From NCBI GenBank assembly GCA_947628605.1, contig CANRAM010000001.1, positions 1 to 45,926 on the forward strand: 45,926 nt of DNA. The letters run 5' to 3'. The notes beneath the pieces were generated by a model. It saw only the letters and a program-made list of their open reading frames with translations, did not search any database and was not told the origin of the DNA. The stretch comes from an uncultured Clostridia bacterium. Its GTDB lineage: Bacteria > Bacillota > Clostridia > TANB77 > CAG-508. This document shows, piece by piece, positions 35,381 to 37,452 of the stretch (its first letter is position 1; each line of letters opens with the position of its first letter). The position numbers and the translations under genes were made by a program.

Positions 35381-35640
35381 TTTTACACACTCTCCTAATC
35401 TTTTTTTATTTATCGTTCCTATTCTATCACATATCTTAATATTTTTGCACTATTTTTTTATAATTTCTTAAGAAAAATATTTTTGCGCTTTATTAATGGA
35501 ACAAATGACAGTTTTTGTCGGTATTTGTCGATATTTTTTCGTAGCAAATTTGTACTTTATATGTTATATTATATTTTATGGTTAAGTTACAAAAGGAAAC
35601 ATTTTACAACATTTTATTTTAAGTGAAAGGAATGAATTAT

Positions 35641-36057
35641 ATGAGTAAATTGTATAACAAATATCTCTTATTAAAATCTTGCGATGCATCAAAATACTAT
35701 CTTTTTAAGTCTGGCATATTTTATATTTTTTTAGATGAAGATGCTAGAAAAATTTCTTCTTTACTAGGTTTAAAATTAACTAATTTGAATGAAAATATCG
35801 TAAAATGTGGATTTCCAAGTTCAAAACTTTCAAAGTATATTGAATTGCTTAATAATACTAATATACTTTTTCAAATAGTAGATGAAAACCTTAATGCTGT
35901 TACATATGAGGAGCAGTATTTACATAATGTTTATGCAACTAATGTTTTAAATAGTATTATGAAACTCGATATAAATAAAACTTCCCCTATTGATGCTCTT
36001 AATTTATTATGTGAGTTTAAAAAAATTTTACAAGGAGATTTGATTAATGAAAAATGA
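35641..36057 (+). CDS. Small MutS-domain-I-like protein (MSL-type DGR accessory candidate)
   Basis: The track ORF starts at 35623. GAAAGGAA precedes the ATG at 35641. KYYLFKSGIFYIFLDEDARKISSLLGLKLTNLNENIVKCGFPSSKLSKYIELL resembles the MutS N-terminal FYE.F..DA...S..L.I.LT......CG.P motif. Confidence 0.5.
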   Translation: MSKLYNKYLLLKSCDASKYYLFKSGIFYIFLDEDARKISSLLGLKLTNLNENIVKCGFPSSKLSKYIELLNNTNILFQIVDENLNAVTYEEQYLHNVYATNVLNSIMKLDINKTSPIDALNLLCEFKKILQGDLINEK

Positions 36058-36403
36058 TAATAATTTATTAATTCACCAAAAATATATGGAATTAATATAT
36101 TACACAAATGATTTAGTTAGAAAATATCCTAAGTCTGAAAAATTTGCACTTGTTCAAGAAATAAAGCAATCTTTATATTCTGGTTTGCGCTATCTTATGT
36201 ATGCAATAAAGAGTTTTAATAAAAATGATAAACTTAAATTTTTAAATGAACTTGATGTTTCTTTAAATTTATTAAAAGTTCATTTACGCCTATCTTATAA
36301 GTATAAGTATATTTCTATGCAAAATTATACTACTTGGAGTGCTAAAATAACTGATATATGTAATATGTTGGGAGGTTGGATAAGCTCGTGCCTAAAAAGA
36401 TAA
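36047..36403 (+). CDS. avd: Avd-type four-helix-bundle accessory protein (23S rRNA IVS protein family)
   Basis: 118 aa. YPKSEKFALVQEIKQSLYSGLRYLMYA and C-terminal NMLGGWISS resemble Bordetella phage bAvd (..ILGSWIA). Overlaps both neighbours. Confidence 0.75.
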   Translation: MKNDNNLLIHQKYMELIYYTNDLVRKYPKSEKFALVQEIKQSLYSGLRYLMYAIKSFNKNDKLKFLNELDVSLNLLKVHLRLSYKYKYISMQNYTTWSAKITDICNMLGGWISSCLKR

Positions 36404-37452
36404 AAAATTGCTTTTATAAAAATTTAACTTTTGAGAAAATGTATGAGGCTCATTTAAGGGCAAGACGTCATAAGGTTTATAAAAATGAGATTATAAGTTT
36501 TGAGCTTAATTTGGAAAATAATATTACTAATTTAGTAAATTCTATAAAAAATAAACGTTATCATTTAGGTACGTATTATGAATTTAAAGTTTATGAGCCT
36601 AAAGAAAGAGTTATAAAAGCATTACCTTATGTTGATAGAATTGTACATCAGTGGTATGTTGAAGAATTTATTAAACCATTTATTCTTCCTAAGTTTATTA
36701 ATACTACTTATGCTTGTATTGCAGATAGAGGTACTCATAAAGCTGTTGCACAAATTGAACAATATATGAGGGAATATAAAAGAAATTATGGGCGTTTTTG
36801 GATTTTGAAGTGTGATATAAAGAAGTTTTTTTATAATATAAATCCATATATTTTGTTTAATATTATGAAAAAATATATTAAGGATTCTGCTTTGTTAGAT
36901 TTTACTCATTTACTTATTTTTAATAATAATCCTTCTAGTGTTGGTATTCCTATTGGAAATTATACATCGCAGTTTTTTGCTAATATTTATCTTAATGAAC
37001 TTGACCAATATGTTAAGAGGGTTTTAAAATTAAAATATTATGTTCGATATATGGATGATTTTATTATTATTTTGAGTAATAAGAATGAGTGTAAATCTGT
37101 TAAGGAAAAAATTGAAGTATTTTTGAAAAAGAATTTACAGTTAGAGTTAAACGCTAAGTCTAGATATTATCCAGATAAAATGGGTGTTAATTTTTGTGGA
37201 TATAGGTCTTTTTGTACTCATAGGTTACTACGAAATCGTAGTAAGGTTAGTATTAGAAATAAAGTAAAAAAGTGGAATAAGCAATTTCATAGTGGTAATT
37301 TTAATTTTTCTATTGTGTTACAAAGTATTAATTCGTGGCTTGGGCATACTTCTCATTGTAATTCTTATACTTTGCAAAATAAAATTTTAAATAGTTGTGA
37401 TTTTTTGTATAATGCTCATTCTTTTAATGATTTTGAAAAATTTTACTATTAG
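36376..37452 (+). CDS. DGR-type reverse transcriptase
   Basis: VGIPIGNYTSQFFANIY (the DGR-specific I/LGxxxSQ motif), YVRYMDDFIII (YxDD), FKVYEPKERVIKAL, YACIADRGTHKAV, NFCGYRSFCTHRLLRNRS. Collinear with what I recall of Bordetella phage Brt. The start may be the GTG at 36388. Confidence 0.85.
   Translation: MDKLVPKKIKNCFYKNLTFEKMYEAHLRARRHKVYKNEIISFELNLENNITNLVNSIKNKRYHLGTYYEFKVYEPKERVIKALPYVDRIVHQWYVEEFIKPFILPKFINTTYACIADRGTHKAVAQIEQYMREYKRNYGRFWILKCDIKKFFYNINPYILFNIMKKYIKDSALLDFTHLLIFNNNPSSVGIPIGNYTSQFFANIYLNELDQYVKRVLKLKYYVRYMDDFIIILSNKNECKSVKEKIEVFLKKNLQLELNAKSRYYPDKMGVNFCGYRSFCTHRLLRNRSKVSIRNKVKKWNKQFHSGNFNFSIVLQSINSWLGHTSHCNSYTLQNKILNSCDFLYNAHSFNDFEKFYY

Follow-up and report, generated by a model that had tools for sequence, protein, structure and literature searches.

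The three overlapping, intact genes on the plus strand between pyrH and rluA (35641-37452) of the DNA stretch analyzed here (45,926 nt of contig CANRAM010000001.1 from an uncultured Clostridia bacterium, hereafter the window) almost certainly form a protein-coding operon for a MutS-like protein (MSL), Avd, and a reverse transcriptase (RT), which has its own conserved promoter region and belongs to a chromosomal family of diversity-generating retroelements (DGRs). There is equally little doubt that this family is common in uncultured gut Clostridia and Bacilli. The element has a known DGR architecture but is incomplete: the template repeat (TR), the variable repeat (VR), and the target gene are missing from the entire contig. 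We tentatively favor the interpretation that it is part of a split DGR, the operon of which would be expressed and under selection and would serve a remote TR-RT-14 RNA and a VR target in trans.

Table 1. Features of the cassette and its edges (positions in the window)
Feature	Position	Strand	Remarks
Putative promoter/operator region of the cassette, conserved	35512..35579	+	upstream of MSL
MSL	35641..36057	+	138 aa from ATG 35641; ORF open from GTG 35623
Avd, DGR accessory four-helix-bundle protein	36047..36403	+	118 aa
DGR-clade RT	36388..37452	+	354 aa from GTG 36388; ORF open from TTG 36376
Right junction, RT stop to rluA ATG	37453..37509		57 nt

The starts of MSL and RT given in Table 1 and the ATG at 37510 for rluA are the likeliest ones, and they are the same as in the protein-collection records. 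MSL and avd overlap by 11 nt, avd and the RT gene overlap as well, and the RT reading frame closes at its native stop codon. The neighbors of the cassette in the window are exclusively housekeeping genes. A preliminary description of this DNA had proposed a core of MSL, Avd, and a DGR-type RT, and this identity was borne out by Pfam, NCBIfam, and the comparison with the RT of a Bordetella phage (bRT). The overlap of the genes was also confirmed, but the conclusion that it leaves no room for a TR between avd and RT is uninformative, because the TR of this family lies downstream of the RT in antisense orientation. Similarly, the gap between RT and rluA is indeed short, but it is likely to comprise 57 nt instead of the 42 nt originally assumed.

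The 118-aa protein matches NCBIfam DivGenRetAVD with 90 bits (cut-off 80) and Pfam bAvd with an E-value of 9.8e-23, in agreement with its initial assignment as an Avd-type protein. The suggested similarity of the first ORF to domain I of MutS is underscored by a match to Pfam MutS_I (35.1 bits, cut-off 20.6, E 1.7e-8). In an alignment to residues 14-86 of Escherichia coli MutS the mismatch-contacting Phe is retained in the motif GIFYIFL, and the position of the Glu that follows is occupied by Ile. This small DGR accessory protein is encoded beside Avd-RT in almost every one of the 160 related loci, and the MSL of the window is homologous to its counterparts there. The RT matches RVT_1 and contains the motifs GIPIGNYTSQFFANIY and YMDD, as had been noticed before. 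Its best relative of known structure is the Bordetella phage bRT (8ub7, E 1.1e-40), with which it is collinear, as anticipated, over residues 3-329. In the same comparison, the E-values of group II intron RTs are no better than about 1e-15. The RT is 56-77% identical to RTs that adjoin genuine A-mismatch TR/VR pairs, which places it in the DGR clade, and the contrary placement, which had been named beforehand as an argument against the identification, did not occur. Its C-terminal tail is homologous to that of the RT of L081, a close relative (loci of the comparison set are designated by L numbers), up to the stop codon.

Other types of RTs were considered and rejected. A group II intron RT/maturase is incompatible with a score of 106 bits for TIGR04416 (cut-off 300), and the Rfam scan revealed no intron RNA. 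A retron or defense RT is incompatible with the scores for retron St85 (57 versus 235 bits), Drt3a (69 versus 200), and Drt2 (48 versus 390); PADLOC yielded only generic RT matches, all defense-RT models of PADLOC and NCBIfam remained far below their cut-offs, and no retron RNA (msr/msd) was found in the Rfam scan of the window. Stand-alone RT systems (retrons, DRT/UG, Abi, group II) share the RT domain, and some of them need no target-gene repeat, but the Avd and MSL partners of the window RT are DGR-specific. A phage origin was also rejected, as the best RTs of phages and of IMG/VR are only 34-42% identical; the family is chromosomal and absent from IMG/VR, and its best viral relatives are 36-42% identical. 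The DGR of phage BPP-1 (bRT-Avd; PDB 8ub7) resembles the cassette in the collinear RT with the motifs IGxxTSQxFAN and YMDD and in the Avd homolog next to the RT. In contrast, it is phage-borne, has the order mtd/VR-avd-TR-brt on one strand and an RT-10-type spacer, and lacks MSL, while the element of the window is chromosomal, contains MSL, and lacks TR and VR. The DGR of Legionella pneumophila, which has an MSL gene (Wu et al., 2018, PMC5758913), likewise resides on a chromosome and has Avd and a DGR RT in addition to MSL, but it has an adjacent TR and a VR-bearing lipoprotein target, neither of which is present in the window.

The comparison with about 160 related loci revealed the organization of the complete elements. 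Downstream of the MSL-Avd-RT operon, and in most cases on the other strand, come a structured RNA of about 220 nt (Rfam RT-14), a TR of 130-165 nt, and the VR, with which the target gene ends. The RT-14 RNA lies immediately 3' of the TR, normally downstream of the RT and antisense to it, and the TR is never located between avd and RT. TR/VR pairs of 130-165 nt were found in about 50 of 80 loci, with 10-26 mismatches, almost all of which are at T on the RT strand. HMMs for the TR and RT-14 have hits in about 100 of the 160 loci, the lowest E-value being 1e-57, Rfam RT-14 reaches its gathering score in L003 and L022, and 27 of the 35 predicted pairs of the RNA element show compensatory changes. 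The target proteins are pilin-like with a C-terminal VR and have a weak FGE-sulfatase match. The template unit is found 44 nt to more than 5 kb away from the RT, sometimes upstream of it and sometimes in arrays of 2-8 units, additional VR-like copies occur at a distance of 2.5-5.7 kb in L021 and L029, and one MAG contains two DGR loci (L028 and L046). Because it is on the opposite strand from the RT, the template unit needs a promoter of its own. It has been reported that co-transcription of TR and RT is not required (Wu et al., 2018, PMC5758913). In a complete member of the family, the RT-Avd complex together with MSL copies a TR RNA. This RNA comes from a transcription unit of its own, which in most cases converges with the RT gene and is antisense to it. 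The structured 3' element of about 220 nt (RT-14) is probably the counterpart of the TR-brt spacer of BPP-1, and the adenine-mutagenized cDNA replaces the VR at the 3' end of the gene for a prepilin-type surface protein with a lectin fold.

The cassette of the window agrees with these MSL-type DGRs of gut Clostridia (e.g., L003, L022, L098, and L081; Architecture D of Wu et al., 2018, PMC5758913) in the nature and order of the three genes and in the overlap of avd with RT, the RT identity is 56-77%, and the promoter region is conserved with L081 and L001. What it does not have is a terminator, an RT-14 RNA, a TR, a VR, or a pilin-like target with a lectin fold, and it is directly flanked by pyrH and rluA. 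The absence of TR, VR, and target, first noticed in the vicinity of the cassette, holds for the entire contig. The family TR HMM had no match in the whole 45,926-nt window at E<=10, the HMM of the TR-adjacent RNA (nhmmer) had none although about 100 relatives match, Rfam RT-14 (RF02921) is absent from the window even at E<=5, and the Rfam scan revealed nothing near the cassette. A search for repeat pairs biased at adenines or thymines, which had been proposed for the whole genome, was performed with the full window and yielded none; the matches obtained were AT-rich, due to chance, and at most 53 nt long. An overlooked TR next to the cassette, the finding that had been named beforehand as decisive against the absence, was not discovered. 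Six GC-rich islands of the window were inspected as family-independent TR candidates, as family TRs have a GC content of 42-48% in genomes of 26-31% GC; they turned out to be coding or tRNA sequence remote from the cassette, without a match to the TR model. A tblastn search with 28 family target proteins against the 45.9-kb window gave nothing better than E 0.08, in agreement with the earlier statement that no C-type-lectin or FGE-like variable protein is encoded nearby. A large SpaA-repeat protein encoded at 3607-8985 is unrelated.

The left edge of the cassette is marked by the conserved region upstream of MSL (Table 1). Within this region, the direct repeat TGTCGGTATTTGTCGA (35516-35531) precedes the -10-like TATGTTATATTAT. 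The region is 82% identical over 68 nt to that of the canonical relative L081 and also aligns with L001. The motif occurs once in the window, with 0.12 occurrences expected by chance, and once in L001, and related CGACA/TGTCG motifs are present upstream of MSL in the sister clade. The region probably acts as a promoter. The possibility that the 240-nt upstream spacer is a hidden TR was ruled out; its conserved part is common to L001 and L081, and because L081 has RT-14 and a TR 3' edge elsewhere, downstream of its RT, the spacer is best regarded as a promoter/operator region. The window lacks the small divergent ORF that is found upstream of MSL in at least 52 loci.

At the right edge, the homology of the window to L081, L082, and L001 ends after the RT stop codon. 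The junction contains TGTATAAT at 37496-37503, 6 nt before the rluA ATG, no terminator-like site was found in 37453-37509, and the junction stands in place of the terminator, the RT-14 RNA, the TR, and the VR-target of the relatives. The cassette is located at a synteny break, as rluA is preceded by different genes in related species (rpmB-nth-DUF8173 or others). The nearest RluA orthologs are at most 69% identical, the synteny rluA-ACS(-mnmA) is kept while the upstream genes differ, and a true empty or filled site was not present among the respective contigs. Exact look-ups of PyrH, Avd, and RT of the window for an empty-site comparison found nothing, and those of Frr, RluA, and MSL retrieved only short near-identical ENA fragments. 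A functional link between rluA and the cassette was rejected, as rluA is found within 10 kb in only one of about 160 loci.

The left junction was independently confirmed by an ENA assembly with 99.86% identity that spans pyrH-MSL-Avd, while the RT-rluA junction is seen in the window contig only. It would therefore be conceivable, but it is very improbable, that an assembly or binning artefact produced a contig that is chimeric at the RT-rluA join, and that the real RT is followed by RT-14, TR, VR, and target. An independent ENA contig (L083, 99.9% identical) starts at position 37448 of the window, 5 nt short of where the RT stop codon ends, and many contigs of the family terminate at the TR/VR or close to it, where metagenome assemblies often break. 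However, the coverage of L083 is about twofold, a depth at which contig ends are frequent, the contig of L089 also ends on a gene boundary, and the chance of a coincidence of the L083 type is estimated to be about 10%; at this coverage the start of L083 was also judged not significant as a population breakpoint. In addition, five other orphan cores from unrelated assemblies have the same kind of tight junction, and the junction shares no repeat with other parts of the contig.

These orphan cores belong to six loci without TR and RT-14 (the window, L001, L006, L007, L015, and L031) among about 64 loci whose flanks extend for 2 kb or more on either side. The five other than the window are from the genomes CANRBJ01 (L001), CANRPR01 (L006), CAKPKE01 (L007), CAKPAI01 (L015, on a contig of 476 kb), and CANQRS01 (L031). 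The orphan cores come from at least four RT lineages, and instead of forming a single clade they are interspersed with canonical DGRs. The closest relatives of the window, L081 (77% RT identity) and L082 (75%), still have RT-14, and the contig of L081 ends inside the 3' edge of the TR. Since the nearest relatives are canonical, an old TR-less lineage is disfavored, and since L001 branches outside L081/L082, the window and L001 underwent separate losses, both of them derived. Judged from these sequence comparisons, the loss of template and target in the window is thus a derived, lineage-specific event.

The three genes of the window contain neither frameshifts nor stops, and there is no excess change at family-invariant sites. 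The deviations at conserved positions (none of 17 in MSL; one of 29 in Avd, Y10H; one of 122 in RT, K292S) equal the medians of the TR-bearing members. The estimated terminal-branch dN/dS values are about 0.13 for RT, 0.05 for Avd, and 0.21 for MSL, and that of Avd versus relatives is 0.04-0.11, whereby purifying selection versus relatives mostly reflects time possibly before the template loss. Compared with the TR-bearing L081, the window has slightly elevated dN values on its terminal branch (RT 0.088 versus 0.067, Avd 0.047 versus 0.025, MSL 0.151 versus 0.100). The intact ORFs, the invariant sites without excess change, and the low omega argue against long-standing decay. The dN/dS between the window and L001 was rejected as proof of selection in the orphan state, as the tree shows independent losses. 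L007 and L015, which are from two species, share the chromosomal location of their orphan core, with a dS of about 1.4-1.8 and a dN/dS of 0.095 for RT and 0.18 for MSL.

The main rival to a split DGR is a recently stranded remnant, which is possible but somewhat less probable. A deletion or rearrangement after the RT stop would have removed the terminator, RT-14, TR, and VR-target, no other template would exist, and the functionless genes would not yet have accumulated inactivating mutations. The independent, derived losses in the window and L001 next to relatives that keep RT-14, TR adjacency as the family norm, the synteny break upstream of rluA, and the mildly elevated terminal-branch dN are in agreement with this explanation. 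In addition, L098 is a complete DGR in which an rluA ortholog, oriented like the RT, follows it at a distance of 5 kb, which is compatible with an ancestral order RT-TR-target-...-rluA that collapsed by deletion. However, the window genes show no sign of decay, and all six orphan cores are intact, while several TR-bearing loci have split RT matches. Furthermore, the syntenic L007/L015 pair has been under purifying selection over a dS above 1, which would be unexpected if such cores were dead on arrival.

The recurrence of orphan cores in at least four RT lineages, tightly packed among housekeeping genes, the purifying selection on L007/L015, and the chromosomal nature of the family would also fit an exapted module, in which MSL-Avd-RT is kept for a function other than homing, e.g., reverse transcription of other RNAs, defense, or repair, so that TR and VR are not needed. 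This is unlikely, because the orphan cores are scattered instead of forming one clade, have no distinctive substitutions at conserved sites, and have no conserved new partner gene or RNA, and because the defense-RT models are far below their cut-offs. A related view is that orphan cores in general are a selected stable state and not debris, either with an exapted activity independent of TR/VR or, in a milder form, as physically split DGRs that produce their TR RNA at a great distance from the RT. It is based on the recurrence in several lineages, the intactness, the housekeeping-gene neighbors, and one site conserved across two species, and we regard it as rather doubtful. Candidates for an exapted activity may be reverse transcription of other cellular RNA or MutS-like nucleic-acid surveillance.

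The range of the three explanations originally offered, i.e., a remote TR/VR pair, decay, and domestication, has been narrowed by the intact ORFs, the low omega, and the canonical nearest relatives. A split DGR, our tentative preference, is supported by the separability of the template unit (opposite strand, variable distance, arrays), by the recurrence and intactness of orphan cores, and by the lack of decay of the window genes. The template/target half is gone from the window, with the break just after the RT stop codon, and RT, Avd, and MSL would be supplied in trans to a TR-RT-14 RNA and a VR target outside of the 45.9-kb contig. The adjacency of the TR in about 58 of 64 well-flanked relatives and the slightly higher terminal-branch dN of the window compared to L081 speak against a split DGR. 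So does the fact that L081 and L082 keep RT-14, and L081 also the TR 3' edge, so that the split state is derived and could be very recent. The evidence from L007/L015 concerns another lineage, in which a TR more than 10 kb away would be hypothetical as well. A literature search for orphan or split DGR cores found nothing specific.

DGR surveys routinely discard RT genes without a detectable TR/VR. If orphan cores are functional, the enzyme module of a DGR need not be located next to its template/target module in a genome, DGR finders that are limited to a window arrive at too low a number of active systems, and diversification in trans could affect any remote TR-RT-14-VR module. RT-14, until now an orphan Rfam motif, gains a function-linked placement immediately 3' of an antisense TR. 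For practical use, the picture of the family, with the placement of RT-14, the pilin-like targets, and the arrays of up to eight diverged TR units, may even outweigh the orphan locus itself.

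The locus between pyrH and rluA comprises three overlapping ORFs on the + strand (window 35,623-37,452). The first had been likened to MutS domain I in the preliminary description, and this was upheld by a Pfam MutS_I match above the cut-off (E 1.7e-8). The protein, termed MSL, aligned with residues 14-86 of E. coli MutS and retains the mismatch-contacting Phe (GIFYIFL versus GDFYELF of MutS), with Glu replaced by Ile at the next position. The second ORF, described there as of the Avd type, indeed scored above the cut-off of the NCBIfam equivalog model for DGR Avd (90 versus 80 bits) and also matched Pfam bAvd. 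The third encodes an RT with GIPIGNYTSQFFANIY and YMDD; its DGR type and collinearity with Bordetella phage Brt could be confirmed, bRT (8ub7) being the top solved relative (E 1.1e-40), and its scores against group II intron, retron and Drt models were far under the cut-offs. A short spacer to rluA had also been noted correctly, but its length is 57 nt, counted from the likely rluA start, and not 42 nt. It is secure that the window locus is the enzyme-coding half of a known DGR type, i.e., the MSL class, or Architecture D (Wu et al., 2018, PMC5758913).

Thousands of homologues of the window RT were found, hundreds of them with 56-78% identity in MAGs of uncultured gut Clostridia and Bacilli. 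The family is chromosomal, and the top IMG/VR and GenBank phage RTs are merely 34-42% identical. The MSL-Avd-RT trio is present in 80 of 80 genome loci, most of which contain canonical pairs of template repeat (TR) and variable repeat (VR), as revealed by an adenine-bias repeat scan. These pairs are 130-165 nt long, and their 10-26 mismatches fall almost exclusively on T when read on the RT strand; therefore, TR, VR and target are on the opposite strand, in convergent orientation directly downstream of the RT. It has been described that TR and RT may occupy different strands (Wu et al., 2018, PMC5758913). The target proteins (350-780 aa) begin with a prepilin-type N-terminus and carry the VR, which is of the lectin/FGE type, at the C-terminus; a weak FGE-sulfatase match was obtained. 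At least 52 of 163 family loci have, immediately upstream of MSL, a divergent small ORF of about 110 aa without Pfam match. This candidate fourth cassette gene is missing from the window and from its relative L001.

The preliminary description had seen no TR, VR or target, and this holds for the entire 45.9-kb contig, in which no A- or T-biased repeat pairs above chance, no matches to the TR and RT-14 HMMs (E<=10) or to Rfam RT-14 (E<=5), no homologues of 28 family targets, and no unexplained GC-rich islands of the TR type were detected. The contig lacks the cis elements by which a DGR is defined, and with neither TR/VR pair nor target the locus is not a full DGR. It is an incomplete new example of an already known type, and its core clearly descends from a complete DGR.

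Features of the window and of related DGR loci (L plus number)
Feature	Locus	Position	Strand	Remark
SpaA-domain protein gene	window	3607-8985	-	1,792 aa
Cassette left edge	window	35512-35579		putative promoter/operator
MSL start	window	35641	+	ATG, likely; product on record
RT start	window	36388	+	GTG, likely; product on record
Extended -10-like element to rluA ATG	window	37496-37512		-10-like TGTATAAT
rluA start	window	37510		ATG, likely; product on record
BSnc120 match	window	40234-40324	-	sub-threshold
mnmA-like ORF	window	41540-42082	-	180 aa
RT-14	L003	11134-11282	-	Rfam RF02921
RT-14	L022	11171-11327	-	Rfam RF02921
TR + RT-14 array	L063	3346-8198		eight units
Single unit of this array	L063	6600-6756		
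TR + RT-14 array	L035	11116-14584		four units
Divergent small ORF	L097	1710-2045	-	
Divergent small ORF	L007	8670-9044	-	
Divergent small ORF	L031	5401-5760	-	
ORF downstream of RT	L031	7878-8444	-	188 aa
Orphan cores	window, L001, L006, L007, L015, L031			

The cassette is flanked by housekeeping genes, cdsA-uppS-frr-pyrH on one side and rluA, an acyl-CoA ligase, a Nudix protein, a tRNA, mnmA and sufSDB on the other. Its left edge is a conserved stretch common to L001 and L081; at its right edge the native C-terminal tail and stop of the RT are kept, and immediately beyond this stop no homology to relatives remains. Related species have preserved the rluA-ligase(-mnmA) synteny with differing genes upstream of rluA, which places the cassette at a synteny break. 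The RT-rluA junction was observed in the window only, as would be expected of an assembly artefact; with the left junction confirmed by an independent ENA assembly (99.86% identity, covering pyrH-MSL-Avd), we regard this as very improbable. An ENA contig (99.9% identical) begins 5 nt before the end of the RT stop, which is regarded as uninformative at about 2x coverage. The -10-like element ends 6 nt before the rluA ATG, and neither a Shine-Dalgarno sequence before rluA nor a terminator between RT and rluA was found, so rluA may lack a leader or be transcribed by read-through from the RT operon.

Tentatively, we favor a split DGR, in which the window operon would still work in trans on a remote TR-RT-14/VR module. 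The main rival, a recently stranded, non-functional remnant, is somewhat less likely. In the canonical locus L098 an rluA orthologue in matching orientation lies 5 kb downstream of the RT, past TR and target, which hints at a deletion as the origin of the window arrangement. The closest relatives, two short Logan contigs (L081, 77%; L082, 75%), have both retained RT-14 downstream of their RT; the L081 contig breaks off within the 3' end of a TR. The clade of window, L001, L081 and L082 has a bootstrap value of 99/100 in an NJ tree, L001 being its outermost member in 68/100 replicates, and L001 is an orphan core at another site (rsmE, core, xerD-like). The window and L001 losses are therefore independent and derived. 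Against a remnant, no sign of decay was found in the window core: deviations at positions at least 93% conserved in the family (MSL 0/17, Avd 1/29, RT 1/122) equal the medians of TR-bearing members. Pairwise dN/dS values with L001, L081 and L082 are 0.04-0.23 (dS >1), and three-taxon estimates for the terminal branch are about 0.13 (RT), 0.05 (Avd) and 0.21 (MSL), with a dN slightly above that of TR-bearing L081; the loss cannot be dated from these values.

Of the loci with flanks of 2 kb or more on each side, 6 of 39 in the genome set, window included, and 0 of about 25 in the metagenome set have neither TR nor RT-14. These orphan cores belong to four or more RT lineages and are interspersed with canonical DGRs; all six have intact genes and housekeeping neighbors. 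Their RT match is unbroken, unlike that of several TR-bearing relatives: it is broken near residue 324 in L048, L050, L051, L052, L055, L065 and L067 and lies in two segments in L143, L158 and L161-L165, a pattern suggestive of a frameshift or stop close to the C-terminus. Orphan cores of two species, L007 and L015, are orthologous and syntenic (rlmN-like gene, small ORF, MSL-Avd-RT, XRE, aspS), and their cassettes have a dS of about 1.4-1.8 and a dN/dS of 0.095 (RT) and 0.18 (MSL). At least in that lineage, selection has kept the core without TR or VR within 10 kb. Synonymous divergence between the two is 0.7-1.8 left of aspS, cassette included, and about 0.1 in aspS and rightward, and this sharp mosaic boundary suggests recent recombination between the species. 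Directly downstream of the orphan RT of L031, an ORF with a prepilin-type N-terminus and no VR domain is possibly what remains of the 5' part of an earlier target gene; this would suggest that the L031 orphan arose by deletion. That orphan cores represent a selected state has a modest probability; an exapted function of the window core is unlikely.

Elsewhere in the window, the SpaA protein, a large surface adhesin that has no relation to the DGR, contains 14 SpaA/prealbumin-fold domains; tandem DNA repeats of 255 nt and 333 nt encode it. The mnmA-like ORF, compared to 349 aa in the L085 orthologue, may have been frameshifted or fragmented, or may reflect an error in the assembly. The intergenic BSnc120 match upstream of the acyl-CoA ligase (30.6 bits versus a gathering score of 114, E 0.003) is probably due to chance.

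The RNA element of the family reaches the Rfam gathering score for RT-14 in L003 and L022; in these and about 100 other related loci it directly adjoins the 3' end of the TR and is mostly antisense to the RT gene. Compensatory changes are present in 27 of 35 predicted pairs of its consensus fold (22 sequences). The template unit is evidently modular, because its distance and side vary (44 nt to >5 kb from the RT, upstream in some loci), some loci have 2-8 diverged copies, and extra VR-like copies occur as far as 5.7 kb away. Diverged TR + RT-14 arrays beside a single VR are found in L063 and L035, and two units each in L124, L062, L130, L131, L134 and L137; these may be multi-template DGRs. 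In L063, the tabulated single unit alone has its mismatches to the VR confined almost entirely to adenines (15 A, 1 C, 1 G), and the remaining units have many non-A differences. RT-n motifs are RT-associated, and RT-10 is located in the TR-brt spacer of BPP-1 (Weinberg et al., PMC5737381). Judged by position, RT-14 would be this family's counterpart of RT-10, and we infer a role in priming. The Rfam orphan motif RT-14 can thereby be placed concretely, as the part of a DGR RNA that flanks the TR.
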